NCBI GenBank assembly: GCA_964409875.1
Contig: CAYPEN010000002.1
Coordinates: forward strand, 210,630 to 274,629
Length of the DNA stretch: 64,000 nucleotides
Source of the DNA: an uncultured Gammaproteobacteria bacterium
Lineage (GTDB): Bacteria; Patescibacteriota; Microgenomatia; Levybacterales; GWA1-39-11
Direction of reading: 5' to 3'
This document shows, in pieces, positions 1,781 to 21,475 of this stretch; the stretch's first letter is position 1; each line of letters starts with the position of its first letter. Under the pieces are notes generated by a model. It saw only the letters and a list, made by a program, of their open reading frames with translations. It was not told the origin of the DNA and made no database searches. A program made the translations under genes and the position numbers.

Positions 1781-3538
1781 ATGGATGACGTAGAACGAAT
1801 AAAACAGAAGCTCGACATAACAGATATTATCGGCGGATATATAGCAACAAAAAGAGCCGGACGTAATTTCAAAGCCGTTTGCCCCTTTCATAATGAAAAA
1901 TCCCCCTCATTTGTCATATCCCCTGAAAGACAAATATGGCACTGTTTTGGATGCAACAGGGGGGGAGACGTCTTTACCTTTGTCGAAGAATACGAACGGG
2001 TCGATTTTTCCGAGGCGCTTAAAATTCTTGCGGACAAAGCCAATATCACCTTAACAAAAACGGTTTTTGCCAACAAACAGGATGAAAAGAAAAACAGAAT
2101 ATACGAAATAAATCACCTTACCAGCCAATTCTATCACTTTCTTTTAACCGAGCATGCAAGCGGGAAACAGGCGCTATCCTATGTTGTTGAAAAACGGGGA
2201 TTAACTCCGGCTCTTATCAAAACGTATGCATTAGGATATGCACCACGACAGGCAAATGCCCTCGCCTCATACCTAATTAACAAAAAACATTATGTAAAAG
2301 ATGAACTCCTGGAAGCGGGCGTTGCAACGATACGAAACGGAAGGCTGTATGATTTCTTTCAAAACAGAATAATTTTTCCCATTCAGGATGCGAGAGGAAA
2401 TATCGTCGCCTTTTCAGGGAGAGGGCTTACTGACGAGGCAATCCCCAAATACATTAATACCAGAGAAACTCCAGTATATATTAAGGGAGATACGGTATTT
2501 GGCCTCTATCAGGCAAAGGATGCGATAAAAAAAGAGGGCAAGGTGATTCTTATGGAAGGAGAATTTGATGTCATTACCTCGTTTAAGGAAGGGCTTACGA
2601 ATGTTGTAGCGGTAAAAGGTACTGCTTTGACAGAAAACCAAATAAGGCTTCTTAAGCGATTCTGCCAGAAAATTGTATTTTGTTTTGATACCGACCCTGC
2701 GGGAACAGAAGCACAAAGACGTTCAATTGCTTTGATTGCCCACGAAGGCATTAATGCAAGCGTAGTTATACCTCCCCAAGGGAAAGATGCAGATGAAGCA
2801 TTGCGGGAAAACCCCCTCTTGTTCAAAAAAGCGCTAAAAAATGAAATAAATATTTACGATTTTATTATTGAAAGTGCAGCCCAAAATGAAGACCCTCAAA
2901 CAGTTGAAGGAAAAAAACACATCCTCACCCGCACCCTTTCCTATATTGCGGATATAGAAAACGAAATTGTTAAGGAACATTACTTAAAAAAACTTTCAGA
3001 GCTTCTTGATACCTCATATGAATCGGTCGTAAAAGAGGCTTTGAAAGAGAAAAAACCGACTCCTCCTGAGATTATCAAGAAAAAAACGGAAAAGAGGTCA
3101 CAGCTTGAGCTTTCGGAAGAGCATATATTAACGCTCATTTTTCAAGCACCCCGCCCAAAAGAAGCGGTCGTTACGGCTGTAAATATTCTTGACGGAATTC
3201 ATTTTTCCCACGATTCCTCACAAAAAATCTTTGAAACGACGAAGACGTATTTTCAGACAAGTGAGGAATTGAATGTTTCGGAATTAAGTAGACTGCTGCC
3301 CCAAGAGGTGCTTTCACAATTTGATTTTTATTTCCTATCCCCTTTGCCTCAATTCCCAAATGATGAAGCGTATATGCAAGAACTTGAGAAATCCATGCGC
3401 TCATACAAACAACTGGCGATAAAAAACCAATTACAAATGGTGTCTGAAAGGATAAAAAAAGCGGAAAAAGAGGGGAATGAGGAATCGCTACAAAAACTAC
3501 GGGTTGAGTTCAACACGCTTGCCTCCCACTTCAAGTAA
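1781..3538 (+). CDS. dnaG: DNA primase DnaG
   Basis: 585 aa. CHC2 zinc finger 'CPFHNEKSPSFVISPERQIWHCFGC'. TOPRIM region 'ILMEGEFDVIT...FCFDTDPAG'. Immediately upstream of rpoD, the classical dnaG-rpoD arrangement. Confidence 0.9.
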   Translation: MDDVERIKQKLDITDIIGGYIATKRAGRNFKAVCPFHNEKSPSFVISPERQIWHCFGCNRGGDVFTFVEEYERVDFSEALKILADKANITLTKTVFANKQDEKKNRIYEINHLTSQFYHFLLTEHASGKQALSYVVEKRGLTPALIKTYALGYAPRQANALASYLINKKHYVKDELLEAGVATIRNGRLYDFFQNRIIFPIQDARGNIVAFSGRGLTDEAIPKYINTRETPVYIKGDTVFGLYQAKDAIKKEGKVILMEGEFDVITSFKEGLTNVVAVKGTALTENQIRLLKRFCQKIVFCFDTDPAGTEAQRRSIALIAHEGINASVVIPPQGKDADEALRENPLLFKKALKNEINIYDFIIESAAQNEDPQTVEGKKHILTRTLSYIADIENEIVKEHYLKKLSELLDTSYESVVKEALKEKKPTPPEIIKKKTEKRSQLELSEEHILTLIFQAPRPKEAVVTAVNILDGIHFSHDSSQKIFETTKTYFQTSEELNVSELSRLLPQEVLSQFDFYFLSPLPQFPNDEAYMQELEKSMRSYKQLAIKNQLQMVSERIKKAEKEGNEESLQKLRVEFNTLASHFK

Positions 3539-3648: not shown

Positions 3649-4737
3649 ATGAGGGTAGGTGCTGTTAAAAACGAACATATTGAAGAACTGTTAGCCTCGG
3701 CCAAGAAAAAAGGCTATATCACCCAGGAAGAGATTCTCCAAAAATTCCCAAAACCGGAACACTTCTTAGAAGAGCTTGACTATCTCTATGACCAGCTCAT
3801 CAAAAAAGAAATCGACATATTTGAAACAATTGAGCAAGAAAAAGAAACCCACAAATCAATTGAGGACTTAGAAAAAGAACTTGAAGCGCTAAATCTTATC
3901 CAAGGAGGAACCGTCTCAGACCCTGTGAGAATGTACCTTAAGGAAATTGGACGTATTCCACTTTTGACATTTGATCAGGAGGTTGACCTGGCAAAACGGC
4001 TTGAGGCGGGAGACGAGTCGGCACGCAAAAAGCTGGTTGAGTCAAATTTACGGCTTGTTGTCTCAATTGCCAAAAAATATGTTGGACGCGGAATGACGCT
4101 TTTAGACCTTATCCAGGAAGGAAATCAAGGACTTATTCGGGCGGTTGAAAAATACGACTGGAAAAAAGGGTTTAAATTCTCAACGTATGCTACCTGGTGG
4201 ATACGGCAGGCTATAACGCGGGCAATTGCCGACCAGGCTCGTACAATCCGCATTCCCGTTCATATGGTTGAAAATATAAATCGTACCATGCGTGTTCAAA
4301 GGCGTCTCATGCAAGAAATCGGCCGCCAGCCAACCCCTGAGGAAATTGCAAAGGAGCTAGAGACTGACCCAGATAAAGTCAGAGAGATTCTTAAAATTTC
4401 CCAGCAACCAGCTTCTCTAGATACTCCAGTTGGGGATGAGGAAGATTCATACTTAGGCGACTTTATCTATGACGTAACGGCGCCAACTCTTTTTGATACT
4501 GCATCACGGGGACTATTAAAAGAGCAGTTAAATTCGGTCTTAGGAACACTTTCCGACCGCGAGAGAAGAGTCTTGGAAGAACGTTTTGGCTTAAAAGACG
4601 GCAAACCAAAAACACTTGAAGAAGTAGGACGCATGTTTGCTGTTACCCGCGAGCGCATCAGACAAATTGAAGCAAAAGCTTTGAGAAAACTTCGCCACCC
4701 CTCCCGTGGCAACAAACTCCGCGACTACTTGGAGTAG
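3649..4737 (+). CDS. rpoD: RNA polymerase primary sigma factor (sigma-70 family)
   Basis: 362 aa. Region 2 '[29 protein letters not shown]'. Region 4 HTH '[30 protein letters not shown]'. Follows dnaG. Confidence 0.9.
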
Positions 4738-4810
4738 AACGACAGGCAAGCTCCGCTTATCTAGAGTAACTTCTGAAAGTTTTCATTTTTTGTGCTACGG
4801 TAAATATATT

Positions 4811-5359
4811 ATGAAATTATTCATTGTCTCGGCTTTTCTGCTCATCCTTTTTAGCACAAGCAACGCGTATGCCTCGTCATCTCACCGTAATTTTGCTTCA
4901 GACTCTGCTGATATGGTATTCACAGAGCTGCCCGAAGAAAACCCCAAATTCTCACTTGACGCGCTCAATGCTTTTGCATATATCTCCGACCAGGTAAGGA
5001 TCATCTCTGTTCTTCGGCTAGTCGGAGTAATCCAAGCACTAGGAATAGATCAAAACTCCTATTATGTTTCCGACTTTACCAAGAATGATGAATGGATAGA
5101 TAAATTAATTGAAAACGGCGAACTCTCCCCAACATACGCAAAAGTCCTTACTTTTTTCACCGGTAAAACCCAAAACTGTATGGACACAACGCAGCAAGGA
5201 GTGTGCTATTCATCAAATGGGAACCGCGCATTGCTTCTTGTTAAATTGACATATGGCCCAACAAACAGAAAATGCGGCAATGACTCTGCTTTTTATCTGT
5301 GGGACTCAAAGAGTGGAGGAAAGACAGTTTGTCTTACCCCAAAGACGCTTTCTATCTGA
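4811..5359 (+). CDS. hypothetical secreted protein (signal peptide, Cys-containing)
   Basis: The track ORF starts at 4706, but an internal ATG at 4811 gives the signal peptide 'MKLFIVSAFLLILFSTSNAYA'. No recognisable domain. Confidence 0.45.
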   Translation: MKLFIVSAFLLILFSTSNAYASSSHRNFASDSADMVFTELPEENPKFSLDALNAFAYISDQVRIISVLRLVGVIQALGIDQNSYYVSDFTKNDEWIDKLIENGELSPTYAKVLTFFTGKTQNCMDTTQQGVCYSSNGNRALLLVKLTYGPTNRKCGNDSAFYLWDSKSGGKTVCLTPKTLSI

Positions 5360-5451
5360 TGCTGTGGCAGAATACCATTTCAGGCTAGACTTCTGTTTTT
5401 CTAGGTGATAAAATAGCTAACACTCAGAAAATCTGAGATTTCTACCAATGT

Positions 5452-5731
5452 TCCGCGATAGCTCAGCGGTAGAGCAGGAAGCTGTGTTAGCAGCTCTTGA
5501 TGGAAACGTCAAGATGAATAAGTGGGTGAATTCAGGGAACGTTTCAACAACCCTGAGCCAAGCCCTTTCTGCAAAAAAGAAAGGGAAGGTGCAGAGACTA
5601 GGTGAGTACACCAATTAGCGCCCACCACCTACATCTTTTTAAGACATGGTGATGAGATAGTCCAAAAAGTAAAACAAATAGTTTTACTAACCGTAACTTC
5701 AAGGTCCTAGGTTCGAATCCTAGTCGCGGAG
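5452..5731 (+). tRNA. intron-containing tRNA, most likely tRNA-Asn(GUU); exon 1 5452..5485, exon 2 5694..5731
   Basis: Exon 1 is TCCGCGA-TA-GCTC-AGCGGTA-GAGC-A-GGAAG-CUGU. Exon 2 is UAA-CUUCA-AGGUC-CUAGG-UUCGAAU-CCUAG-UCGCGGA-G. Spliced product is 72 nt with a perfect 7-bp acceptor stem, D-arm, T-arm GGTTCGAATCC and anticodon loop CU-GUU-AA. The two halves are 208 nt apart. Confidence 0.75.
5486..5693 (+). ncRNA. group I self-splicing intron inserted in the tRNA anticodon loop (between nt 35 and 36)
   Basis: Exon ends in U (U-1). 'GCAGCU' at 5490..5495 can pair with exon 'AGCUGU' to form P1 with a terminal U·G. Intron ends in G (omega-G, 5693). Conserved core elements: R-like 'GUGCAGAGACUAG' (~5595) and S-like 'GAGAUAGUCC' (~5654). 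A P5-like stem 'UCAGGGAACG...CCCUGAG'. No ORF inside. Confidence 0.7.
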
Positions 5732-7321
5732 CAAAACAGGACGATGAAGATAAAAATCGTCCATTTGGACTGTTATATCAGCCTTTATTGGTGGTTCGAA
5801 AATCCTCGCAACTATTATGTCGTTTCTTTCCTCTTTCGAACTGATAAGCTCATTTGTAAGCTCGACCAGCTCAAGGAGTAATTTGAATGCTTTGGAATAA
5901 TTTGCAATCAGTTTTCCGTTTTCCAAATATAGGTCTGAAAAAACAAGGTTCGTTAATAGTCTCTTGTCTTCTTTCTGCGCCTTTTCATAAATGATATTTG
6001 CCCGTTGAGATAGTTCATACAAACTAGAACCCAATTCATAATATTTTTCATTCGCATTAGTGTGCTTCTCCAGAGACTTTGCTATGTCTTTTAGCTCTTC
6101 GAGGTAACGCTTTGAGCTTTGTGTGTAAAACGTCTCTGTAATTTTTTCATCCAGTTTGTCTTCGTACATTTTCTCCAGACGTTTATTGAGTTGCGTCTGA
6201 CGTTGATTAAGTTCATTGAGTGAAGAAGAATGATATTGAATTTTATCTTTATGTCCTTCTTTAAGTGCTTTTCGCACCCATTCAACAATACGGGGATTAT
6301 TTATACGTAACTTCCCAAACTCTTTGGCCAGAGCTTCTACTACTTCTTGCTGGGTATACCATATCTCCTGAGAGCAATCTTTATAACCGTTACAATGCCC
6401 ATAGACGATTCCTTTATGGATTTCCCAGGTAATTAACCCTCTGCATTCCATACACCGAAGCATACCTTGAAAAAGATGATTGTGTTTTCGATACTTTGGC
6501 GTGCTCTTGCTCCTCAATACTTCCTGCACCTTAGAAAATAAATCGTCACTGATAAACTGCTCGTGATTACCCTCATATAAAGCGTCATTCCATCTGATTT
6601 TTCCAATATAGAAAGGGTCAGTAAGATATTGATGAATTCTACTTTTTACAATCTTATTTCCGTTAGCATTGCGAAGACCTTTCTTGTATACGAACTCAGT
6701 TAACGCTTTCAGGGAATAATTTCTACTGGCGTATTGTGTGAACATCTCAATAACGAGCGGCATTTTATCCTCATCGATAACATGAGTTTTATGTCCTTTT
6801 TCTCCGACAGTTTTGTATCCGATTGGTGGTCTTGTGGGAAGCCATCCTTGGGCTATTTTTTCTTTTTGTCCCTTCTTTACGTTTTCCGAAAGAAGTCTCA
6901 CGTAATATTCAGCAGTAGCAACTTTTACTCTCCACATGAACCATTCATGGGATTTTGAATTCCTATGCAAAATACAGCCTTCTTTTACAAGATGAATTTG
7001 ATTACTCTCATCATCCATGACCCATTTATCAATTGTGGGAACGTCTGCAAAATTTCGGGTCAAGCGGTCTGTTGTTTCTACAACCATAGCGGGAATCTTA
7101 TTGTCACGAATGAATTTAGTCATTTCGTTAAAAGTCTTCCTTTGCGTATGTCCACTTGCCGATTCTGAAATAGCAAAAACTTTTATAATCTCTAGATTGT
7201 TTTTTGCAGCATACTCACGAAGGAATTTCTCCTGGGCAGGCAGAGAGTATCCTGTTTCCTCTTGTTCTTTACTGCTTACTCTACAAAATAAAATTGCTTT
7301 CATAATCTCAAATGCCCTCAC
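5720..7321 (-). CDS. large serine recombinase (integrase)
   Basis: 533 aa. N-terminal resolvase catalytic domain with nucleophile Ser in 'ILFCRVSSKEQ'. Central recombinase domain. Cys-rich zinc-ribbon 'CMECRGLITWEIHKGIVYGHCNGYKDC'. C-terminal coiled coil. Stop codon overlaps the 3' end of the tRNA by 12 nt. Confidence 0.85.
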   Translation of the reverse strand: MRAFEIMKAILFCRVSSKEQEETGYSLPAQEKFLREYAAKNNLEIIKVFAISESASGHTQRKTFNEMTKFIRDNKIPAMVVETTDRLTRNFADVPTIDKWVMDDESNQIHLVKEGCILHRNSKSHEWFMWRVKVATAEYYVRLLSENVKKGQKEKIAQGWLPTRPPIGYKTVGEKGHKTHVIDEDKMPLVIEMFTQYASRNYSLKALTEFVYKKGLRNANGNKIVKSRIHQYLTDPFYIGKIRWNDALYEGNHEQFISDDLFSKVQEVLRSKSTPKYRKHNHLFQGMLRCMECRGLITWEIHKGIVYGHCNGYKDCSQEIWYTQQEVVEALAKEFGKLRINNPRIVEWVRKALKEGHKDKIQYHSSSLNELNQRQTQLNKRLEKMYEDKLDEKITETFYTQSSKRYLEELKDIAKSLEKHTNANEKYYELGSSLYELSQRANIIYEKAQKEDKRLLTNLVFSDLYLENGKLIANYSKAFKLLLELVELTNELISSKEERNDIIVARIFEPPIKADITVQMDDFYLHRPVLLRD

Positions 7322-7427
7322 TGGTTGTGCTCAGAACGGTGATGTCCTGTCCAATGAGGGCATTAAAAAACACCACCTTGTTTACTGAGCACGTTTTAAA
7401 CATAGCGCTCTGATTTAATAAAATCAA

Positions 7428-7583
7428 CTATGTTTCTATATTACCATCTGTTACTTTCAATAGAACTTCATAATACTGAAAGATAGCACTACCGATTTCT
7501 GAAACAAGGTCGTCTGATAGGCTCACACCGTAATCACTTTTGAAAATCTCTTTAAGTTCTTCCAATAACTGTTTATTAATCAT
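7428..7583 (-). CDS. small hypothetical ORF (52 aa) in the island, not in the supplied track
   Basis: ATG at 7583 gives 'MINKQLLEELKEIFKSDYGVSLSDDLVSEIGSAIFQYYEVLLKVTDGNIET' on manual translation. Below the track length cut-off. No homology recognised. Confidence 0.2.
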   Translation of the reverse strand: MINKQLLEELKEIFKSDYGVSLSDDLVSEIGSAIFQYYEVLLKVTDGNIET

Positions 7584-7657
7584 GTTTTTTATCTCGAGAT
7601 GACTAAATGGTCACCTCTTATCTCTTCTGCACATTCTTGACTCTTGTGACAAATACT

Positions 7658-7954
7658 CTAGGCACAAACTTGCAATATAATTTCATTGTTCTGTTGTATC
7701 TTTTTAAACTCTGGTGTTTTCCGAAAAATGTTTCGAACTTCTTTCGGTTTCACTGCATATCTATTTTCCTTTGCAACCGCACAAACGAATGAAATAAGAG
7801 GATAGTCTCCAATAGCATCCCATCGAGCCTCGTTTCTCAAGAATGTAAAAATTGTTTTCAATCGCTTTTTTCTTTCAATCATTTTTTCAATAATAGGCTT
7901 AGACAGACTTAAATCTTGGAAAGAGTAATAGTTAAATTTATTTATTTTTCCCAT
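7658..7954 (-). CDS. hypothetical protein (island)
   Basis: 98-aa ORF, AT-rich island context, co-directional with the recombinase. Confidence 0.35.
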   Translation of the reverse strand: MGKINKFNYYSFQDLSLSKPIIEKMIERKKRLKTIFTFLRNEARWDAIGDYPLISFVCAVAKENRYAVKPKEVRNIFRKTPEFKKIQQNNEIILQVCA

Positions 7955-8109
7955 ATATCTATTAATTAATATTTATTAGTTACAAGATATTTACTTCTTA
8001 CTAGATAGTTAATATATAGTGATAGTAAATATTGATTATTTGCTCTCCAGTGAAAATAAGAATCTGATAAAAATAAGAATGATATATACATATTCATAAT
8101 TAATATTTA

Positions 8110-8481
8110 TTAGAAGGGAATATCATCTGGATTAACAACTTCTTCTGAGAACTCTCTTGTGTTTCCGAGCTCTTCATTGACCCTATCTAAAACTGCCTTG
8201 GATATTTCGAAGAACATGCTTTTGTCGGAGATGTAAACGGATTTTACATAGCTGTATCCAGCTTTATAGGCGGGCAAATCAAATACTAAAGTTTCATGGC
8301 CATCACCATTAAAATCTCTCTTCTTGATTGTTATGCCTTTGATTGTTATAAATCCGAAATCGACCTGTACGAAGGCAATAATTGAAGGATTTCCATGAGC
8401 TAATTTAATGCGTGCTGTAGCAAAATTAGTATTTAAATCTACGGGTATTTCTACCTCAATGTCTGATTTTTCCATATTCAT
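8110..8481 (-). CDS. hypothetical protein (island)
   Basis: 123-aa ORF, no recognisable motif. Confidence 0.4.
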   Translation of the reverse strand: MNMEKSDIEVEIPVDLNTNFATARIKLAHGNPSIIAFVQVDFGFITIKGITIKKRDFNGDGHETLVFDLPAYKAGYSYVKSVYISDKSMFFEISKAVLDRVNEELGNTREFSEEVVNPDDIPF

Positions 8482-8488
8482 TTAATTT

Positions 8489-8686
8489 TTAACTATGCTT
8501 ATGATTTTTCATAAACACATTGAGCGTCATATCAAACACTTTAATTCCTACAGCACGACAACTCTCGCAACAAATAAAATCGGGGTTCTCAAATAGACAA
8601 TAGTGAAGCGCTGCTCCTAAAGTCGAAAGTTCACCTTCACTTAGGTCAAGTACGTATCTGATTTCCTCTAGCTTAGTTTTTTTCAT
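8489..8686 (-). CDS. hypothetical small Cys-rich protein (island)
   Basis: 65 aa, 'CxxC...CC' content. 14-nt overlap with the upstream ORF suggests an operon. Confidence 0.3.
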   Translation of the reverse strand: MKKTKLEEIRYVLDLSEGELSTLGAALHYCLFENPDFICCESCRAVGIKVFDMTLNVFMKNHKHS

Positions 8687-8948
8687 AGGTTCCTTTCGTT
8701 TTCTCGTGAATTCGCGTTTTTAATTCATTAATTGTTTCTATGAGGAGACGGGATTCTACCTTGAGACTTCTATCCCAATGCTTTTTTATGATTTCTTCAC
8801 ACTTAACTGGAGTTGCAGAAAATTGAAAAGTGATGAATCTTCCGTTGCCACTTATGAGGCTAGTAAGAGGTATTCCGCTTGCTCTAACAAGCACTGCAGA
8901 ATAGAAATCATTTGTTTGCCAAGTTGTATTTTTATCTTTCATCTCCAT
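8673..8948 (-). CDS. hypothetical protein (island)
   Basis: 91-aa ORF overlapping the next gene by 14 nt. Confidence 0.35.
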   Translation of the reverse strand: MEMKDKNTTWQTNDFYSAVLVRASGIPLTSLISGNGRFITFQFSATPVKCEEIIKKHWDRSLKVESRLLIETINELKTRIHEKTKGTYEKN

Positions 8949-9019
8949 AAAAAAACTCTGAATTGTTTGAGTATCCAGAGTTTATAAAACGGAGCGATAT
9001 GGATTGAGACGTTATTTTT

Positions 9020-9844
9020 CTACTTTTTAAGCATGACTTTTTGTCTTTCTTTTAATCTTTGCTTCATTTTTCGAAGTGTATTGGCTTTCTTTTTGAGTTC
9101 ATCGTTATCGGCATGTTCGTATATCTCGGCCGCTTGTATCGTCGAGGTAATTTTTTCCTGAATTTTTCCATCAACGGAATCATAGTAAGTACGTTTTGTG
9201 CCAATCTCACCAGTTTTTAAGGATTGTGTTAAGTTACGTATTCGTCTGTGTTTATTTTTACTCATAGATAACGCTTGTAAAAGGCTTCTATATGCGGACT
9301 GCGCTTTTTTTGACGGTCTTCCCTTAATACCAACGTTGTTTTTGACAGTTCTACGAACATATTTCTTTTCCTGTGTGGTGAGCGGTATCCGTTGCAACTC
9401 ATCAGGGTTACTCATGATGTCATTCGGGAGTTCAGTGTTATAAAGTGGGGTCCATGGAGGTTGCCCATACAATACAAAGTATTGCATCCAGTCGTAGAAA
9501 CCAATAGGCAAGCCGTAGCTGACAAGTAAATGATTTATCCGTTTTTCGAATATGTCCCTAGTAGATTTATCCTGAGTTCTTAACCAAAAAGATTCTGCAT
9601 CAATATAATTATCATATTCAAAAGATTCCACATCTTTTTCTGAATTCAACTTTGGAATGCTCAGCTCTTTTCTCAACCCTTTTATGTCTTTCTTGAATCC
9701 AGTATCACTTTTTAAGTATGTCGAGAGTTCTCGATTTAATTCTTTTCGTGTTCCGAAATACTTTGTGTCTGCTTCATGCTTAATCGCATCTTGCATCAAT
9801 TCTCCAAGAGGGGATAACTTCGGCAAGTTCTTATTTCTCTTCAT
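9020..9844 (-). CDS. hypothetical protein (island), basic/charged
   Basis: 274 aa, Lys/Arg-rich termini. No motif recognised. Largest cargo ORF of the island. Confidence 0.45.
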   Translation of the reverse strand: MKRNKNLPKLSPLGELMQDAIKHEADTKYFGTRKELNRELSTYLKSDTGFKKDIKGLRKELSIPKLNSEKDVESFEYDNYIDAESFWLRTQDKSTRDIFEKRINHLLVSYGLPIGFYDWMQYFVLYGQPPWTPLYNTELPNDIMSNPDELQRIPLTTQEKKYVRRTVKNNVGIKGRPSKKAQSAYRSLLQALSMSKNKHRRIRNLTQSLKTGEIGTKRTYYDSVDGKIQEKITSTIQAAEIYEHADNDELKKKANTLRKMKQRLKERQKVMLKK

Positions 9845-10094
9845 ATTACATTTAATTTGTGCTTATTATACTAGATGGATATATTTGATTAAGATGATAT
9901 AGTTTATCTTTCTTTTATAATTCTAAAAATTGTCTTGTAAAACGCTCTTCTGATGAAGTTATTGTGGTCAATATCACATTAAAATATGTATAAAAAGCCT
10001 TACAAACTTATATATAACTGCAAACTAACGCATTCCGCTTTAAAAAGAATTAGAAAAACATGCAGAGGTTATCCTGTAATCAGAAAAGAAGTGC

Positions 10095-10322
10095 TTAAAA
10101 AGGTATAATTTTATTTACTTTTATTTGAAGTGCATTTGCAATCTTTTCCAAGGTTTTCATGCTCGCTTTCCTATGACCTGTCTCAACAAGACTAATAAAT
10201 GTTTGCGTTAAGTGTGTTTTCTCAGCAAGCTCTTCTTGAGTCATGCCTTTATCAGTTCTCGCACGAGCTATTGCTTTTCCTAATGCCTGTTCCTTCTTAG
10301 TTATTTTTTGCCTGTCTTTCAT
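10095..10322 (-). CDS. XRE-family helix-turn-helix transcriptional regulator (cI/Cro-like)
   Basis: 75 aa. 'LGKAIARARTDKGMTQEELAEKTHLTQTFISLVETGHRKASMKTLEKIANAL' is a canonical HTH_XRE. Confidence 0.8.
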   Translation of the reverse strand: MKDRQKITKKEQALGKAIARARTDKGMTQEELAEKTHLTQTFISLVETGHRKASMKTLEKIANALQIKVNKIIPF

Positions 10323-10358
10323 ACCATATCAAAAGTAACAAACACCCCTCAAAAAGTT

Positions 10359-10419
10359 TATTAACAACTGGTTATATTTCGAGGCCAAACTATTGCAATT
10401 CTATTAACTGGAGGTTATT
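10359..10419. promoter_or_regulatory. divergent promoter region with two related 17-bp motifs (putative operator sites)
   Basis: 'TATTAACAACTGGTTAT' (10359..10375) and 'TATTAACTGGAGGTTAT' (10403..10419) lie between the divergent XRE repressor and the 10443 gene. Confidence 0.25.
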
Positions 10420-10442
10420 ATGTTTTTGGGCCAATTTACACT

Positions 10443-10739
10443 ATGAGAGAGTACAAACACGCTAGGTTGATTGCGGGAATTTTATTTATTGGAGGATTAG
10501 TATTTAGTTTTTTTGTATTTGGAAAATCAGACTTTGTTTTGGTATTTACTTTAATTATTGTGTTTTCTATAGCTGGGATGCTCACTGGTCAAGAAATTGT
10601 TTACGACAAGCTTGGTAAAATGCACTATACGTTCTTTGAAGATGAAGCCAAAAAAAGGCGCGAGAAAGATGAAGAGTTATCAAAAAAGGTTCAGGAATCA
10701 ATGAAACAGTATGAAAAAGAACATCCAGAAACGAAATAA
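10443..10739 (+). CDS. hypothetical membrane protein (2 TM)
   Basis: 98 aa. Hydrophobic N-terminal half 'LIAGILFIGGLVFSFFVFG...LIIVFSIAGML', charged C-terminus. Confidence 0.4.
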   Translation: MREYKHARLIAGILFIGGLVFSFFVFGKSDFVLVFTLIIVFSIAGMLTGQEIVYDKLGKMHYTFFEDEAKKRREKDEELSKKVQESMKQYEKEHPETK

Positions 10740-11076
10740 GAGAGAGTTAATAATAGGAATTTCTTGTATTTTAATTGGTGCAATTATTACTTATCTGTTA
10801 ATAGGCAACAAAATAAAAGAACAAAAGAATCTAACCTCACGTATACTGAAAAACTCAATTCAAAGCATGGAAGCCTCCAATGAACTTGCCAACTCATGTG
10901 CTGACGCGTACAAAACCGCTACTGCCTGTGTTACTAATCTTCAGTCATGCAATATTTTAGAAGAATCAAAAAAATTAGACGAATACAATACAAGAAGAAA
11001 ACATGCGGACACTATTATCGACTGGGCCAACAAAGACATGAAGCAGATTATCGAAGAAGTTTCGACTAAACATTAG
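10711..11076 (+). CDS. hypothetical membrane-anchored protein
   Basis: 121 aa, single N-terminal TM 'LIIGISCILIGAIITYLLIG'. Overlaps the upstream ORF. Confidence 0.4.
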   Translation: MKKNIQKRNKRELIIGISCILIGAIITYLLIGNKIKEQKNLTSRILKNSIQSMEASNELANSCADAYKTATACVTNLQSCNILEESKKLDEYNTRRKHADTIIDWANKDMKQIIEEVSTKH

Positions 11077-11079
11077 TTT

Positions 11080-11295
11080 ATGGGAAGAAAAAGGAAGAAT
11101 GGAGTCTTAATTGATTTCGTGGTGGAAACGATTATAAAAGAACAATATGTTAGTGTTCCATTTATCCAGAGAAAATTTCAAATAAGCTATTCGACAGCAA
11201 GAAAAATCATTTCAAAACTGTTTGAAATGGGATATATCGAAAATGAAACTGAGTTTAAAGATATAAAAGTAATAAAACACAAATATATACAATGA
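11080..11295 (+). CDS. small winged-helix protein resembling the FtsK gamma domain
   Basis: 71 aa. 'YVSVPFIQRKFQISYSTARKIISKLFEMGYI' resembles the FtsK/SpoIIIE gamma wHTH consensus (…SISAVQRKLKIGYNRAARMIEAME…). Confidence 0.4.
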   Translation: MGRKRKNGVLIDFVVETIIKEQYVSVPFIQRKFQISYSTARKIISKLFEMGYIENETEFKDIKVIKHKYIQ

Positions 11296-11449
11296 AAAAG
11301 TTAATCGGAATATTTAACACTAAAATAAATACACCAGATGAAATTTATCAAAAAGTAAAAGAGGTTCTTGAAAATAGAAACAAAAAAAACTTAATAAACC
11401 TGAGAAAGGTAGCAAATGATGATATTCATAAGAAGTTTAAAAATATAGC

Positions 11450-12331
11450 TTAATTATTTTCTGGTGGACAATCTACAAGCTCTGTCTCGATAGTTGCGTG
11501 TTCAATGTGAAATTCTTCTTTTAGCTTTTCTTTAATTTCTTTCACAACCTTTATACTTTCTTCTAAGGTGCATTTTTCAATTGTAATATGACAGCTAAGT
11601 GCCGAATCATGAGACGAAATTGCCCATGCATGTAGGTCATCAGCGTTCTTTACATTTGGAGTGTCCAATACTGCTTTCTTTATTCTTTCCATATCTAATC
11701 CTTCAGGCACGCCCTCTAATAGAACATGCACAGCGTCTCTTACTACGCTCCAACTTCCCCGAATAAGAAATACGCCAATAACAACACTAATTAGTGAATC
11801 GAAGATAGACATACCTGTGATAAGAATCAGAACACCTGCAATAAGTGCACCAACTGAAGCTAATGCATCAAAAAGCATGTTTATGTAAGCACTCCTGATG
11901 TTTAAGTCTTTCTTTTCGCTTCTAAAAAGCAACGCGATGCTAAGATTTACACATAGACCAATAAAAGCTACTATCACCACAACCCCACCTTCAACTGGAT
12001 GAGGAGTTAATAATCTTTGATATGCCTCGTAAAAAATATATAGCGCGAGAAGAAACAGTATTAAACCATTTATCAAAGCGGCAAGAATTGTAGCTCTACC
12101 ATACCCGTAAGTATGGTCAACATTTGCCTTTCTTTTTGAAATCCTGTTTGCTAAAAATGAAATAAGAAGAGTTAGCGAATCAGTGAGGTTATGACCTGCA
12201 TCTGAAATAAGAGCAAGGCTTCCCGAAAGAATTCCAGCGATGAATTCAATAACTGTAAACCCAGTATTCAGAACTAGTCCTATTTTAAGTTTCCTATCTA
12301 ATTTTTCAGGGACGCTGTGATTTTCGCTCAT
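11450..12331 (-). CDS. cation diffusion facilitator family metal efflux transporter (CzcD-like)
   Basis: 293 aa. TM domain with 'HNLTDSL' and 'LISDAGH' His/Asp metal-site motifs. C-terminal cytoplasmic domain. Confidence 0.85.
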   Translation of the reverse strand: MSENHSVPEKLDRKLKIGLVLNTGFTVIEFIAGILSGSLALISDAGHNLTDSLTLLISFLANRISKRKANVDHTYGYGRATILAALINGLILFLLALYIFYEAYQRLLTPHPVEGGVVVIVAFIGLCVNLSIALLFRSEKKDLNIRSAYINMLFDALASVGALIAGVLILITGMSIFDSLISVVIGVFLIRGSWSVVRDAVHVLLEGVPEGLDMERIKKAVLDTPNVKNADDLHAWAISSHDSALSCHITIEKCTLEESIKVVKEIKEKLKEEFHIEHATIETELVDCPPENN

Positions 12332-12354
12332 GAATTAATTCTAGCACTTAAAAT

Positions 12355-12570
12355 CTAAACCAGTGGAGTAGCAGAATAACCGACAGTCTTTATTATATTA
12401 ATAATTTTTTGAAGATTAATCTTGGAATCATCAAACTCAATCTCCGTATGTTGCTTTGCATAGTTTGTGTTAGAACTTTTAACTCCATCTGTATCCTCAA
12501 GTTCTCCATCTATATTCATAGCACAACTCGTACAATGCATTCCTTCAATTTTAAGTTTTAACTTTGTCAT
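12355..12570 (-). CDS. copZ: heavy-metal-associated (HMA) domain copper chaperone CopZ-like
   Basis: 71 aa with 'GMHCTSCAMNI' (MxCxxC). Confidence 0.8.
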   Translation of the reverse strand: MTKLKLKIEGMHCTSCAMNIDGELEDTDGVKSSNTNYAKQHTEIEFDDSKINLQKIINIIKTVGYSATPLV

Positions 12571-13706
12571 ATTACGTTAATCACCCCTCTATACATTCCC
12601 ATACTACATGAAAAGGGAATTTGTGTTGGTTTATCTGGCATTTTCAATGCGAAAGTTTCAGTATTCCCAGCCTGAACAACTTTTTGATATTTAAAATATG
12701 GAATCGTAATAGCCGATGCACAAGTATATGTTCCTGCATTCTTAATCTTGAATGATACTGTTGTTCCTGCTTTAACTGTAATTTGATTTGGGACGTATCC
12801 TGATTTTTCAATATCAATCATTACGTTTTGGGATGGTTTGGCTTCAGCTGATACAGCTGTAGACTTTGCTGGTTTATTAAATAAGCTATTTAAAGTCCAT
12901 GAGCTACCTGTTAATGCCAGAATGTTATTTAAATTAAATACTGCAAGAAGGATAAGAACTACAGCTGCAAATTTCATAAATCTGTTTTGCATTGTTTCTC
13001 CAAGTCTTGTGGCAAAATATCCAAGAATAAAAAAGAGAGGAGAGGTGCCCAATACGAATGCGAAAAGAATAGCAGCACCCAAGAATGGACTACCTGAACC
13101 TATTGCTAATGCCATCATTGCTTGCGTAATGCCACAAGGAATTAGAACGGTGAATGCTCCAAGGAGAGCTGGAGCAAATATGCTCTTGCTCTTTGATTGA
13201 TTCCTAACCATACGTGTTAATGATTTTGGAGGCTGAATGATGAAATACCTGAAGATTGGATGAACATTCAGTAAATTAAGAGCAGTGCCCACCATAAATA
13301 TCACAACTGCAAGCTGCATTATAACTTGCGTGGCTATAGACAGTTGAAATAATGAGCCAAGCCAACCAAGAAGAAATCCTAATATTGTATATGCAATTAG
13401 CTTTGCAACTAAAAATGAGAGTATTGGTACGGCATTGTCTGTCTGTTTTGTTTTTTCCTTTAAATTCTCTTCTTCTCTCTGAGCTATGGTTGCAGCGAGA
13501 AGTCCTCCCTGTACTGCAAGACAAGTAAGTCCTCCAGTAAGAAGTCCTGTTAGAAATATTGTCCATAAATTAATATTTTTTGGATTTGGTGTTGGGGAAC
13601 CAGGATTCTGTAATGAATTAATTTTAAGCAGCAAAATTCCTATTAAAACAAATGCAATTACGACTGCACCAATAAGTAATTTTTCTTTTTTAATTTTTAT
13701 TTCCAT
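12567..13706 (-). CDS. polytopic membrane permease with C-terminal beta-sandwich (cupredoxin-like) domain; putative metal transport
   Basis: 379 aa, about 8 TM helices. C-terminal soluble domain 'VTVKAGTTVSFKIKNAGTYTCASAITIP...FSCSMGMYRGVINV' with Cys/Met candidate ligands. Sits between copA and copZ. Confidence 0.5.
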   Translation of the reverse strand: MEIKIKKEKLLIGAVVIAFVLIGILLLKINSLQNPGSPTPNPKNINLWTIFLTGLLTGGLTCLAVQGGLLAATIAQREEENLKEKTKQTDNAVPILSFLVAKLIAYTILGFLLGWLGSLFQLSIATQVIMQLAVVIFMVGTALNLLNVHPIFRYFIIQPPKSLTRMVRNQSKSKSIFAPALLGAFTVLIPCGITQAMMALAIGSGSPFLGAAILFAFVLGTSPLFFILGYFATRLGETMQNRFMKFAAVVLILLAVFNLNNILALTGSSWTLNSLFNKPAKSTAVSAEAKPSQNVMIDIEKSGYVPNQITVKAGTTVSFKIKNAGTYTCASAITIPYFKYQKVVQAGNTETFALKMPDKPTQIPFSCSMGMYRGVINVI

Positions 13707-13708
13707 AG

Positions 13709-15928
13709 TTATATTTTAACTCTTTTAAGCAAGAGAGAATTCGAAACCACTGAAACGCTCGATAATGCCATAGCAACAGATGCAAGTATAGGACTAAGTA
13801 AAATACCCCATATTGGATATAGTATCCCCATAGCTATTGGTATAAGCACTACATTATATCCAAATGCCCAGAAAAGATTTTGCTTAATGGTTCTCATGGT
13901 TTTTTTGGATAATTCTATAGACGATACGACAGAATTCAGATTCTTGTTAACTAAAGTAATGTCGGATGCTTCGATAGCAACATCTGTTCCTGTTCCCATA
14001 GCAATTCCAATATCTGCTCTTGCTAGTGCTGGAGCGTCATTAATTCCATCTCCAACCATAGCAACTTTTTTACCCTCAGCTTGAATTTTTCTAACCTCTT
14101 CTTCCTTGCCTTCAGGTAAAACTTCTGCTAGAACTCGAGTGATACCTAGTTTTCCAGCAATTGCATCAGCTGTTTTTTGATTGTCACCCGTAATCATTGC
14201 AACTTCTATTCCCATCTTTTGTAATTTTTCAACAGCTTTTTTAGCCGATTCTTTTACCGTATCTGCAACTGCAATTATTCCGATTGCTTTGCTATTTGAA
14301 GCAAGAAGCATAACTGTTTTACCTTGATTTTCGAGTCTATTAATTTGTTCTTTTAGTGCATCTAGTGAAACTTTTTCTCTATTCATAAGCCTTTGATTCC
14401 CAAAGAAGAATGTATCTTTGCCAATTGCTCCCTCAATGCCATGTCCTGAAGTTGCGTTAAATTTATTGACTGACTGTGTTTTTACTTTTTGATTTTCAGC
14501 ATGGGTTACTATCGCCTCAGCAAGTGAATGCTCTGAACCTTTTTCAAGAGAAGCTGCAATACTTAAAACCTCATTTTTCTTTAAGCCATCTATCGCAATA
14601 ATATCTGTTACTTCTGGCTTACCATTTGTTAATGTACCTGTTTTATCAAATATTACGGTCTGAATCTTATTTGCGATTTCAAGACTCTCTGCATCTTTAA
14701 TGAGTATTCCGTTTTCTGCTCCTTTGCCTGTTCCAACCATTATTGCAGTTGGTGTAGCAAGACCCATTGCGCACGGACACGCAATAACAAGAACTGAAAT
14801 CATAGCAACAAGCCCATTAATATAATTGCCCGTCAATAAACCCCATCCAAAAAAAGTTAAGATGGCAATAATCAAGACGGCTGGAACAAAAATTTCAGAT
14901 ACTCTATCAGCTAGTCGTTGAATTGGAGCCTTTGAACCCTGAGCCTCTTCAACAAGCCTTATGATTTGTGAAAGCATAGTGTCTGCTCCAACTTTTGTTG
15001 CTTTCATGACAAAAGTACCTGTTTTGTTCATGGTTGCACCAATTACTTGTGCTCCAATTGTTTTATCAACTGGGATACTTTCTCCTGTCACCATAGACTC
15101 ATTCACTGATGATTCACCTTCCATAATTACCCCATCAACAGGAATCTTTTCCCCTGGTCTGACTCGAATCAAATCACCAATCAGAACCTCTTCAATTGCA
15201 ACATCAATTTCTTTCCCATCCCTAATAACTCGTGCAGTCTTTGCTTGAAGATTTGCTAGTTTTTTAATTGCATCAGAAGTGTGAGATTTTGCTCTTGCTT
15301 CAAGATATTTCCCAAGAGTTATTAATCCAATTACAACAATTACTACGTCATAATAATTGTGCTCTGTATTGAGAAATGCTTTTAGAGGTGTTTCGAATGC
15401 TGTAACTGCAAAACTGTAAATGAAAGCGACAAGTGTTCCGATGCCTACCAACGAATCCATATCTGCTTTTCTGTATTTAATGAAACGCCATAGTCCAGCA
15501 AGATATGGCCTTCCAACAACAAACATCATGTATGTGGCAAAGATGGGTAAAAGGTGATGGAAGAATTCTTTTATCGTGTAGCTCATGGGTAAAAATATTT
15601 CCCAAAGCATAATAAATGAACTAATTCCTATGAGGACAAGTGAAACAATGACATTTTCTTTAAGTTTTGAGTCATAACCCATATTCATATGGTCATGAGA
15701 ACTTTGCATGGGCTCATCAACTACTAACTCGTAGCCTTTCTTTTTAACGGCTGAGGCAAGTGCTTGCTCTGAAGTGTTTTCATCACAATTAATAGTCGCT
15801 CGATTTGTTGCAAGATTAACAGTTGCATCAGTAACACCATCAACTTTTTTAAGAGTTCGTTCAAGAACATTTACGCAAGAAGCACAATGCATTCCTTTAA
15901 CATCAAATGTTTTCTTAATTTCAGACAT
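13709..15928 (-). CDS. copA: copper-translocating P1B-type ATPase CopA
   Basis: 739 aa. N-terminal HMA '[12 protein letters not shown]'. 'CPC' motif in '[12 protein letters not shown]'. Phosphorylation site 'DKTGTLT'. 'GDGINDAP' hinge. Confidence 0.9.
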
Positions 15929-15931
15929 AAA

Positions 15932-16252
15932 TTAACTTTTTTTCTTGAACACTTGCATTATTTCCTCAATAGACTCATCTGCATTGCCTTCTTTAATTGC
16001 ATCAGCAACACAGCCTTTAAGATGATTTTCTAAAAGAAGATTTCCTGTTTCTTTGAGACCTGATTCAACTGCCTGCATTTGATGCATAACATCTATGCAG
16101 TATGCATCTTCTTCCATCATCTTAATAACTTTATCTAAATGTCCTCTTGCTATCTTGAGACGGTGAGTTATTCTTTCGTGTGTGTCTTTTGGTCGGTAAG
16201 CCATATATCCCCCTATGAGGGATATACTAAGACTATTGAAATATTTTGTCAA
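15932..16252 (-). CDS. csoR: CsoR/RcnR-family metal-sensing transcriptional repressor
   Basis: About 90-106 aa (true start may be the internal Met at ~16205). 'RLKIARGHLDKVIKMMEEDAYCIDVMHQMQAVESGL' fits the CsoR helix-bundle with Cys/His ligands. Directly upstream of copA. Confidence 0.7.
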   Translation of the reverse strand: MTKYFNSLSISLIGGYMAYRPKDTHERITHRLKIARGHLDKVIKMMEEDAYCIDVMHQMQAVESGLKETGNLLLENHLKGCVADAIKEGNADESIEEIMQVFKKKS

Positions 16253-16283
16253 GACCTTAATAGGGTTATTAAAGTGATATAAT

Positions 16284-17030
16284 TTGCCTCACATGAGAAC
16301 TCCACCAAAGAAAGTGCTTTCAAGCAAAATTAAAGATTACAAAAGGGACAAAAAAGTTCTGACCCCTCCTTTCGGCCAAATAAACATGAGTCAGGTCATG
16401 TGGCATAAAGAGATGCTTCCTGATTTTTTATGGATAGATTCTCTTGTCGTGTTCTACGGAGACATAGAAGCATCAGAGTATTACAATCGAATGCTCAATG
16501 TTTTAGACGAATACCATAAAGCTGAACCCATTCTTACAGGTACAATAAGCGATTTTGGGTTAATCAAACCCGAAGATAGACCAAAAATCTTAAAAGCTAA
16601 TAAATTTCTAATAGAAGACGCTGTTATCCACCCATTCGCAAACATAATTCGGCTTTATCCCGAGTGCCCCATGTCTTGGTTACTTGAGGGTGCGTCTTTA
16701 TACGAGCTGAATGTTTCCGACACAATTGAAGATGCAAAAAAAGCTGTTGAAAGACTATTTCCAGCCAAAGATAATCATAGTGGACTTGTAAGAGCACTTC
16801 CTCTCAATAGATTCTTTAAGCACAAAAAAGTGCAAATAACTTCAAATATGAAAGAGACAATCAAAAGCATTGAAGAATATCCCAAGGGAGATAGATATAG
16901 AGCAGAGTCTTTTGCCAGAAATCTTCTTAACATGTTCTATATGCAGGAACATGAAAAAAACCCTGACTTAGCAAAATGGAGCAAATATTTTTGGACTTAT
17001 AATTTCAAAATTTCTAAATGTGAGGTATGA
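16284..17030 (+). CDS. hypothetical protein (ORFan module gene 1)
   Basis: 248 aa, no recognisable motif. 4-nt ATGA overlap with the next gene. Confidence 0.45.
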   Translation: MPHMRTPPKKVLSSKIKDYKRDKKVLTPPFGQINMSQVMWHKEMLPDFLWIDSLVVFYGDIEASEYYNRMLNVLDEYHKAEPILTGTISDFGLIKPEDRPKILKANKFLIEDAVIHPFANIIRLYPECPMSWLLEGASLYELNVSDTIEDAKKAVERLFPAKDNHSGLVRALPLNRFFKHKKVQITSNMKETIKSIEEYPKGDRYRAESFARNLLNMFYMQEHEKNPDLAKWSKYFWTYNFKISKCEV

Positions 17031-17848
17031 AAAGAGCTGAGAAAAAACACATAGACGTTATTGAGGAATTTAGAAACTGTGGAAGAAATGCCGCAGATAA
17101 AATTATTGCCGTTCTGGAGTCCCAACAGGAAAAAATCGAAATTGATACTTACTCAAGGCATAAAGATGAAGTTGTAAACGGATTGTTCTTCAGGGTCTTT
17201 AGGTTTTACCATAGTTTTCTTATCAGTTTTCACTTCTGGGCAGCAGACATAAGTGAAATGACGTATCGAACAATGCTAGAGAGTCTTTTCTACTTGAAAT
17301 TCCTGACACATGAAAACAAAGAAGATTTGTATAAAGAGTTTGTAAAATATGGGATTGGTCAAGAAAAGTTATTCAAAGCCCATCTAGGTACTCTTCTTGA
17401 CGAAAAGAAAATTGTAAGCTCACCTGAACTCATTGATTACATTAACTCTGGCAGTGATGATGAAATATGGGATGAACTAGTCTCAATAAAATTAGCTAAC
17501 TTTGAAAACCTAAATAAATTAGCAGAAAAAATAGATTCAAAATATGATTATACAGTTCACTACCAACCATATTCGATAACCGAACACGGGCAATGGCCAG
17601 CTTTAAAAAGATTTTATCTAAAAAGGTGTAGGAATCCATTACATAGATACCATTTTATCGGCAATGCAAGGCTTCCGTATATGGATTTGAGTTTTCTGTT
17701 TTCTACATCAAATCTTTTTTACGAAGCATATCTGATTTGGATAAAAACGTATAGTCTGCCAGACGAAGTTAAGCCTATTATTGATGAGTATGCAGAGTGT
17801 GTTGGGAAAATTGAAAAACCAGATGAGAAAAATTCTGAAAAAAAATAA
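17027..17848 (+). CDS. hypothetical protein (ORFan module gene 2)
   Basis: 273 aa, translationally coupled to gene 1. No known domain recognised. Confidence 0.45.
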   Translation: MKRAEKKHIDVIEEFRNCGRNAADKIIAVLESQQEKIEIDTYSRHKDEVVNGLFFRVFRFYHSFLISFHFWAADISEMTYRTMLESLFYLKFLTHENKEDLYKEFVKYGIGQEKLFKAHLGTLLDEKKIVSSPELIDYINSGSDDEIWDELVSIKLANFENLNKLAEKIDSKYDYTVHYQPYSITEHGQWPALKRFYLKRCRNPLHRYHFIGNARLPYMDLSFLFSTSNLFYEAYLIWIKTYSLPDEVKPIIDEYAECVGKIEKPDEKNSEKK

Positions 17849-18107
17849 TACCGTCTTTCAAAAGCAGGTACTGGTATCTCACGTAGAGGGGTTTATTACT
17901 ACTGTAAAAGCTTCCCGATATAAGGGTAAACTCAGCACAGGGGGTATCAATTTTTATCAGTCAGTTCTATACTACACACTGAGGAGATAGCGAGCCTGCT
18001 GCATCACCACGTCAGGGTAGATTACCAACTCTGGCCAGTTGGAGCCGTAGAAATCGTTCCATCGCTCGAGCACCCAATCATTTTTATAACCATTCCCTGG
18101 TTAATAA

Positions 18108-18533
18108 ATGAAAAACTATTGGAAATTATTAATCCCTCTTATTATTATCATCTTCGCATTTCCCTATTCTTTTGATTTAGGCCTTTTTAAGGGTGAGATT
18201 ACAGAATATTCACTCAGTTGCGATAAGGAAAAATATGTTAACTACAGATGTTTAGAAAAATGGCTTCCTCTCAACCCAACTACCTACAAACCAAATACAA
18301 ATAAACAGCAGGTATTATATTGGACTTTATCAGATATTCAGACTCTTAAGAAATGCTCTGTAGTAAATAGGAAAAATTGGACTTGTAGATATGATGACGA
18401 ATCTGCAGAATTTGGGTTTAAGGATGGACAGTTTTGGGAAGCATCACTTGGGAAAAGCATTTCAGATGACTTATTTGAAACAAGATATGTTTCAAAACTA
18501 GAATACCGACTCGAAGAAATGAAGTGGTGGTGA
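18108..18533 (+). CDS. hypothetical secreted Cys-containing protein
   Basis: 141 aa. Signal/TM 'LLIPLIIIIFAFPYSF'. Four Cys in the mature part. Confidence 0.45.
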   Translation: MKNYWKLLIPLIIIIFAFPYSFDLGLFKGEITEYSLSCDKEKYVNYRCLEKWLPLNPTTYKPNTNKQQVLYWTLSDIQTLKKCSVVNRKNWTCRYDDESAEFGFKDGQFWEASLGKSISDDLFETRYVSKLEYRLEEMKWW

Positions 18534-18629
18534 TACCTGTAGCCCTCGACAATAGCAAAAGCCTTAAAAGTTGACGCTTCTGAGCTTCTCCCTTTTTAAT
18601 ACCCAGGAGTGATACAATAGAAGGTAATC

Positions 18630-18655
18630 GGCTGCCCATCGTGCAGCCTTTTTTT
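18630..18655 (+). terminator. Rho-independent terminator-like hairpin
   Basis: 'GGCUGC-ccaucgu-GCAGCC' followed by UUUUUUU, about 100 nt after the 18108..18533 gene. Confidence 0.5.
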
Positions 18656-18657
18656 GT

Positions 18658-19407: not shown

Positions 19408-19409
19408 AC

Positions 19410-21387: not shown

Positions 21388-21475
21388 TCTTTCAAAGACT
21401 GTTTCTTCTCTGAGTATAAAATCAGTAGTGACTGGTATCACATCGTTTTTTATCCTGCTGAACTATAAATAAATT

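Follow-up and report, generated by a model that had tools for sequence, protein, structure and literature searches.

Two tRNA halves separated by an intervening sequence raise the question of whether they make up a single working gene and, if so, how the RNA between them would be removed. The case analysed here lies at positions 5452-5731 of contig stretch CAYPEN010000002.1 (64 kb in all, hereafter the window), for which a preliminary description had proposed a tRNA-Asn(GUU) gene interrupted between nucleotides 35 and 36 of the anticodon by a group I intron. This locus is very probably a functional tRNA-Asn(GUU) gene of the Patescibacteria (candidate phyla radiation, CPR; Levybacteria-like), split between U35 and U36 by a self-splicing group I intron of 208 nt. 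The anatomy of the sequence, its match to a known RNA family, the covariation of its helices and a spliced product identical to an intron-less ortholog are demonstrated in what follows.

The 5′ exon (5452..5485, + strand; 34 nt, TCCGCGATAGCTCAGCGGTAGAGCAGGAAGCTGT) supplies the 5′ strand of the acceptor stem, the D arm, the 5′ strand of the anticodon stem and the nucleotides C32 U33 G34 U35. The 3′ exon (5694..5731, + strand; 38 nt including the discriminator G, TAACTTCAAGGTCCTAGGTTCGAATCCTAGTCGCGGAG) starts with U36 A37 A38, which places the insertion at 35/36, and continues through the 3′ strand of the anticodon stem, the variable loop, the T arm and the 3′ strand of the acceptor stem; the CCA is not encoded. 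The two acceptor strands (TCCGCGA/TCGCGGA) form a perfect stem of 7 bp. ARAGORN in its default mode found no tRNA in the unspliced 64-kb window, and after in silico deletion of 5486-5693 it called a tRNA-Asn(gtt) with normal D and T arms and an anticodon loop CU-GUU-AA, so that both the two halves lying 208 nt apart and the loop expected after splicing are borne out. Close relatives were reached through contigs encoding three RpoD homologs, their tRNA-Asn genes lying downstream of the same dnaG-rpoD genes. One of them, L003 (RpoD 88% identical), carries an uninterrupted tRNA-Asn(GTT) (Rfam tRNA, 65.2 bits). Ligation of the window exons is predicted to give precisely the anticodon arm of this tRNA, GGAAGCTGTTAACTTCA (GGAAGCTGT|TAACTTCA), and the position of the splice junction is thereby settled without recourse to an intron model. 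The window 5′ exon can also be aligned with exon 1 of two intron-bearing relatives, L001 and L006, and the 3′ exon is 95% identical to that of L001 over 43 nt. Moreover, the U1-A72 pair and G73 of the window tRNA match those of 110 other U1-A72 (bacterial-type) tRNA-Asn genes reconstructed in the survey described below.

A different identity, with other boundaries, has been weighed for this gene, namely a tRNA-Tyr(GUA) with an intron of 194 nt or a tRNA-Thr(UGU) with an intron at 33/34. ARAGORN itself, once introns were allowed, returned a tRNA-Tyr(gta) of 87 bases with a 194-nt intron, so that the intron-detection check suggested earlier recovered an intron but not the asparagine identity, and the same kind of ambiguity is documented in a published survey of Patescibacteria (Nakagawa et al., PMC13011429), according to which standard tools miss introns at 35/36, with ARAGORN and tFind miscalling them as Thr 33/34 or Tyr 36/37. 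The Tyr(GUA) call was rejected: its long extra arm is made from intron sequence, its anticodon stem is mismatched, and its intron ends in ...CAAAT without a terminal G. The Thr reading, in turn, needs TGTAA at the 3′ junction, where the window has CCG|TAA. Since the U·G wobble at the 5′ splice site and the terminal G of the intron fit 35/36 only, and the intron-less ortholog of L003 reads CTGTTAA, either identity is extremely improbable.

The sequence between the exons has, by its letters and their alignment, the anatomy of a canonical group I ribozyme. The intron (5486..5693, + strand; 208 nt, ending in G) is supported by its match to Rfam family RF00028, by its match to a covariance model built for this analysis (R1, see below) and by its fold. 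RF00028 aligned over its full model (positions 1-253) to 5473-5689 of the + strand with 62.4 bits (E 1.9e-13; gathering score 50); no other Rfam family reached its gathering score in the window. The helices, all on the + strand, were derived from this alignment together with the sequence. P1 (5480..5495) pairs the exon end AGCUGU (5480-5485) with the guide GCAGCU (5490-5495) across a loop GUUA, the guide beginning 4 nt into the intron and the wobble U5485·G5490 marking the 5′ splice site, as had been noticed from the first reading; GCAGC is invariant among 10 aligned introns. The loop nucleotides GUUA (5486-5489) are complementary to UAAC (5694-5697), the first four bases of the 3′ exon, and could form a P10, a complementarity taken as supportive only. 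P2 (5496..5513) is a hairpin of 7 bp closed by a GNRA loop (CUUGAUG-GAAA-CGUCAAG), and P3 joins GUGGGUG (5522-5528) to CGCCCAC (5619-5625), as indicated by sequence, fold and covariation. P4 (5532..5556; UCAGGG 5532-5537, CCCUGA 5551-5556) encloses a very small P5 within 5538-5550, and is followed by P6 and P6a (5558..5589; CC/GG and CCCUUUC/GAAAGGG). P7, the presumed guanosine-binding helix of group I introns, pairs GACUA (5596-5600) with UAGUC (5658-5662) in a pseudoknot with P3. Its strands lie in CAGAGACUA and GAGAUAGUCC, respectively, which align to the conserved RF00028 core and correspond to the R-like and S-like elements of the preliminary description. Between P7 and the 3′ strand of P3 there is a P7.1-like hairpin (5601..5612; GGUG-AGUA-CACC). 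P8 (5626..5651) consists of CACC/GGUG and UCUU/AAGA with an internal loop, P9 (5669..5687) is a hairpin GUAAAAC-AAAUA-GUUUUAC, and the last intron nucleotide is the terminal guanosine (ωG, 5693) that had been predicted. The comparison with RF00028 that had been advised for this intron is thus positive, and P1 to P10 could all be located.

The fold of the intron alone agrees with this assignment. Its minimum-energy structure has -61 kcal/mol (z = -4.5), a value that none of 200 dinucleotide shuffles equalled, and without any constraint it recovers P2, P3, P4, P6, P7.1, P8 and P9. All open reading frames (ORFs) in the intron are of 65 aa or less and look like chance ORFs only, in keeping with the earlier remark that it has no homing endonuclease gene (HEG).

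A wider sample of such introns was obtained by scanning species-representative genomes with the pattern AGATAGTC-N10-40-GTAA-N12-14-GGTTCRAATCC, whose successive parts are the 3′ strand of P7, a gap, the terminal G with U36 A37 A38, a second gap and the T loop. The scan gave at least 120 loci (L007-L126), and each gene was reconstructed by searching upstream for the acceptor strand that would complete the stem and for an exon ending in CTGT, followed by an ARAGORN Asn(gtt) call on the spliced tRNA. A tRNA-Asn split at 35/36 was reconstructed in 111 cases, that is, the window, L001, L002, L006 and 107 of the 120 loci among the matches listed; all 111 have the terminal G, by construction of the search pattern. 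Judging by record titles, 47 of the 120 loci listed belong to CPR lineages, eight to cyanobacteria and eight to Chloroflexi or Limnocylindria, and the rest to many phyla. The closest intron among these matches is that of L055, an unclassified member of the Patescibacteria, with 76% identity over 200 nt. The class is therefore far more widespread than the 28 introns at 35/36 reported from complete genomes in the 2026 survey, extending to more than 100 species-level genomes. Fourteen of the loci listed are labelled 'uncultured Gammaproteobacteria' or Pseudomonadales, some of them with CPR-like tRNAs, and the acceptor and T arms of one, L044, are identical to those of the window; these labels of metagenome-assembled genomes may be wrong.

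R1 was built from a 10-sequence alignment, which included the window intron, and a hand-drawn structure, and comprises 236 positions and 54 pairs. It gave exactly one match, of 72-205 bits, in each of 87 tRNA-Asn loci with short introns, matched 23 loci with long introns as well (one of them twice), and had no match in the intron-less L003. Covariation was assessed on the R1 alignment of the 87 short introns, to which P7 was added as a pseudoknot (59 pairs). Standard pairs occupy 84.0% of the cells, as compared to 64.4% in shuffles and 35-40% in controls with the partner strand slid. Two-sided changes occur in 43 of the 59 pairs and in 1021 cells, against 331 in the controls, and the covariation score of 0.467 (against 0.144) was reached by none of 500 shuffles. 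P2, P3, P4, P6a, P7.1 and P8 are paired in 92-99% of cells with several pair types each. All seven pairs of P2 (93.7% paired) and all seven of P6a (92.4%) covary on both sides, P3 (99.3%) shows two-sided changes in four of its seven pairs, three pairs of P4 (96.8%) covary, and so do all four outer pairs of P8 (96%). The P7.1 hairpin is found in roughly 35-45 of the 87 relatives, where its four pairs all covary (99.4% paired), and is absent from L001, L089 and L067. P7 is 100% paired, but its invariance across the 87 introns makes it uninformative for covariation, as are P1 and P9, which vary in length and were poorly aligned by the model. An alignment fitted to a structure is biased toward pairing; the conclusion on the helices is nevertheless safe in view of the controls with slid partners and of how many pair types occur.

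Several points weigh against reading the locus as a working, self-spliced tRNA gene. Beyond CUGU/GCAG, P1 is not conserved in the relatives, nor is P10, and both add little independent support: in the 28 introns in which a script located the guide, GCAG is followed by C in 24, whatever the nucleotide at position 31, and P10 is usually undetectable. With the guide located in those 28 introns only, no covariation is claimed for P1 or P10. The anticodon stem of the spliced tRNA has a G27·A43 mismatch at its top, which seems from the sequences to be a feature of the lineage, the intron-less tRNA of L003 having an identical arm. A possible promoter (5386..5414, + strand; TAGACT-17-TAAAAT, the -10 box being preceded by TG), some 38 nt ahead of the tRNA, is a weak candidate at chance level: the consensus scan gave one site where 1.0 was expected by chance. 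Besides, splicing of this intron is predicted from sequence and homology, and the view of the genome is the 64-kb window, which holds no other tRNA, so that a second, uninterrupted tRNA-Asn elsewhere is conceivable. This last point, together with a locus known only as DNA letters, is what could be said for a decayed, catalytically dead relic lying in a tRNA pseudogene, with an intact tRNA-Asn encoded elsewhere. Such a relic is very unlikely given that every core element is intact, that P7 has the consensus sequence from which none of the 87 relatives departs, that both exons form a perfect cloverleaf and that the intron has the second-highest R1 score (204 bits), though it is among the ten source sequences of that model.

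The supposition that a tRNA-Asn(GUU) host at 35/36 would be unusual, bacterial tRNA introns being classically those of Leu, fMet, Ile and Arg, is not supported, in view of previous work and of the more than 100 species-level genomes found here. The mapping of tRNA introns through their exons raised the combinations of tRNA and site known to carry group I introns from four to 21 (Williams 2020, bioRxiv 10.1101/2020.01.27.920355), and the types of that study include 'Asn.4Ug', for introns at this very site, as pointed out by Nakagawa et al. (PMC13011429; preprint July 2025, mSystems January 2026). The latter authors described 15 tRNA-Asn(GUU) and three tRNA-Asp(GUC) genes with introns at 35/36 in 95 complete Patescibacteria genomes, and four tRNA-Asn introns with HNH endonucleases. 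The window intron has in common with this published class the tRNA, the anticodon, the site, the boundaries (U-1 and terminal G) and the host phylum; members of the class are reported to measure 184-894 nt, mostly lack a HEG and are missed or miscalled by ARAGORN, and the same holds for the window intron. One entry of their survey, from WWE3 (GCA_000503835.1, intron 756863-757431), is our locus L007, with identical boundaries and an R1 score of 150 bits. The exon and intron strings of the window are absent from the portion of the supplement searched, which included the full table of 22 Patescibacteria cases. The window intron is thus a new member of a class already described and confirmed by experiment.

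The classical bacterial tRNA introns of subgroup IC3 are those of the cyanobacterial and plastid tRNA-Leu(UAA) at 34/35, tRNA-fMet at 33/34, and Azoarcus tRNA-Ile and Agrobacterium tRNA-Arg at 36/37. Like them, the window intron is compact (~200-250 nt in the classical cases), sits in the anticodon loop and has similar P3-P8 motifs (AAUUC.GGGAA, GAGCCAAG, GUGCAGAGACUA, GAUAGUC), and over aligned columns it shares ~71% identity with the tRNA-Leu intron of Nostoc. However, it occupies another tRNA (Asn GUU) and another bond (35/36), so that the host and site of the classical introns do not apply to it, and it has the extra P7.1-like hairpin. This hairpin, which lies between P7 and P3′, covaries in the relatives and is missing from some of the closest ones, is what bears on a possible placement in subgroup IA, whose mark is extra helices in that stretch. 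Nakagawa et al. (PMC13011429) placed in that subgroup 25 of the 28 introns at 35/36 and nearly all tRNA introns of Patescibacteria, none of which is IC.

Two introns of the published survey self-splice precisely in vitro (PMC13011429). For one of them, a 234-nt intron at 35/36 of a Patescibacteria tRNA-Asn, splicing was GTP-dependent, the correct junction was sequenced, and a change of the terminal G to C blocked exon ligation (PMC13011429). This intron, from GCA_016700035.1, is ~57-72% identical to that of the window, and its element between P7 and P3′ exceeds in length the 12-nt P7.1 hairpin of the window. By homology to this related tRNA-Asn intron, the window intron is expected to be catalytic, and, since it is built like a canonical group I intron, the standard two-step pathway would apply. 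The precursor would be transcribed as a single RNA, the intron would fold into its P3-P9 core, and P1, formed by GCAGCU and AGCUGU, would mark the 5′ splice site with its U35·G wobble. From its binding site in P7, an exogenous guanosine would then attack after U35, and G5693, the terminal G, would replace it in the same P7 site. Finally, with P10 (GUUA/UAAC) helping to align the 3′ exon, the freed 3′-OH of U35 would attack after G5693, ligating the exons into a 72-nt tRNA with the anticodon loop CU-GUU-AA. These steps, shown for the homolog of Nakagawa et al., would be shared by the window intron.

A true group I intron could still be efficient in the cell only with the help of a protein cofactor, or act as a regulated gate on the supply of tRNA-Asn instead of being a neutral selfish element. 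The very small P5 and the lack of peripheral extensions speak for some such dependence, as these features sometimes accompany a need for high Mg2+ or a chaperone. For the gate, a regulatory role at the RNA level has been speculated upon by Nakagawa et al. (PMC13011429). On the other hand, the presence or absence of the intron varies among close relatives (L003 as against the window, L001 and L006), as is more readily expected of a mobile element that the cell can do without than of a regulator that it needs, and we regard a cofactor-dependent or gating intron as unlikely.

With regard to the host of this self-spliced tRNA-Asn gene, the tRNA is preceded by a ComM/ChlI-like ATPase gene (- strand), dnaG (1781-3538) and rpoD (3649-4737). 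The nearest RpoD matches are 87-96% identical, and the relatives with a taxon label, at 75-86%, are named 'Patescibacteria group' bacterium or 'Candidatus Levybacteria', the Levybacteria being placed in the Microgenomates group of the CPR. On this one marker protein the host is probably a member of the Patescibacteria from the Levybacteria group. Between rpoD and the tRNA there is an ORF of 217 aa (4706-5359; GTG start) that overlaps the end of rpoD and has no Pfam match; at the same place L001 has a called gene of 246 aa, also free of Pfam matches, that runs into the tRNA 5′ exon. A blastn search of 5300-5900 against phage and plasmid collections gave no matches.

The same tRNA-Asn site occurs in four states among these genomes: with an intron bearing P7.1 (window), with one lacking it (L001), with an HNH-bearing intron (L006) and with none (L003). 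In L001 (GCA_964425075.1; RpoD 96% identical) the tRNA-Asn lies at 7969-8246 and is interrupted at the same bond by an intron of 207 nt (RF00028, 63.3 bits), which differs from that of the window by compensatory changes in P2, P3 and P6, besides the missing hairpin. L001 is the closest genome found (78% for rpoD DNA), and yet the two introns are only 62-71% identical, a difference that may reflect either fast divergence or intron replacement. Pairwise intron identities are too flat (57-75%) to support a clean split into two lineages, so that no case is made for independent invasions. In L006 (RpoD 87% identical) the intron at the same bond measures 569 nt (RF00028, 100.5 bits) and contains an ORF of 110 aa (8263-8595) upstream of the guide and the ribozyme core, with the motif CxxC...HH...CxNCH and a sub-threshold match to Pfam HNH (17.4 bits, E 0.005).

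This ORF belongs to a single family, of ~100-146 aa, that is encoded by 17 of the 23 long (>345 nt) tRNA-Asn introns among the loci listed (L006, L007, L010, L015, L022, L025, L027, L032, L040, L047, L049, L053, L065, L074, L087, L110 and L116). Its members match the L006 ORF with phmmer E values of 3e-30 to 1e-56, have the same CxxC...HH...CxNCH motif with Pfam HNH below threshold, and come from records titled as CPR, Nitrospiria, Deltaproteobacteria, Actinomycetota and one archaeon. HNH-bearing introns such as those of L006, L007 (WWE3) and L027 have the insertion site and the ribozyme core in common with the window intron (R1, 103-188 bits); their ORF lies near the 5′ end of the intron, upstream of the guide and core (a position seen in L006), in the window intron, the P1 loop is of 4 nt only and an ORF of this kind is absent. 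Vertical inheritance is the most likely history of the window intron, which would derive from a mobile family with HNH-bearing members.

The archaeal record is L025 (CAYIBB010000024.1, 96-621, - strand), where a 511-nt intron with the HNH ORF (RF00028, 97.2 bits) interrupts a tRNA-Asn(GUU) at 35/36; this tRNA is the only one with G1-C72 among the 111 reconstructed. Its contig of 8.9 kb encodes an MCM protein with an archaeal winged helix, TBP, aIF1A, aIF2-beta and DUF424, and the MCM, TBP, aIF1A and aIF2-beta genes indicate that the contig is archaeal. Archaeal group I introns had been found only in rRNA genes (Nawrocki et al. 2018), and a single archaeal tRNA case was dismissed as mis-binning (Williams 2020, bioRxiv 10.1101/2020.01.27.920355). 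L025 appears to be a genuine archaeal (Woesearchaeota-labelled) tRNA with a group I intron, a chimeric assembly being possible. A bolder proposal would make this tRNA-Asn gene a hotspot at which introns are still being gained, lost and replaced, with HEG-less copies mobilised in trans by the conserved HNH endonuclease and exchange across phyla reaching DPANN archaea (L025). We hold this as a tentative and rather doubtful idea, and it contrasts with the 'limited horizontal transfer' inferred by Nakagawa et al. (PMC13011429).

A last question to be addressed concerns what lies on the other side of the gene. The tRNA-Asn 3′ exon is overlapped for 12 nt by the end of a large serine recombinase ORF (5720-7321, - strand), and the GC content drops to 33-37% up to about 21 kb. 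The genes of this region include a CDF transporter, a DsbD/cupredoxin protein and a heavy-metal P-type ATPase, and synteny with L001 ends at 5735 and returns at 21464. Judged by its sequence, 5720-21460 looks like an integrated element of ~15.7 kb at the 3′ end of the tRNA; no direct repeat of this end of 14 nt or more, such as an attachment (att) site would leave, was found at the far end of the island. A large serine recombinase also stands on the opposite strand directly after the tRNA-Asn in L003 (10681-12201) and L006 (8188-10506), so that such a gene adjoins the tRNA 3′ end in three of the four genomes compared, the tRNA-Asn of L001 having none beside it. Integration next to the tRNA-Asn gene seems, in consequence, to have recurred in this lineage whatever the intron state.

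As for the meaning of the window intron, its class, site, host phylum and activity have all been published, and it opens no new question. There is a practical side, since ARAGORN reports no tRNA at this locus by default and a Tyr(GUA) in its intron mode, so that the genome would seem to lack a tRNA-Asn, and its completeness score would be lowered. The window intron adds a compact, endonuclease-free ribozyme of 208 nt to a class with proven self-splicing, and with its relatives it makes up a natural series of intron-less, HEG-less and HEG-bearing alleles at one and the same site.

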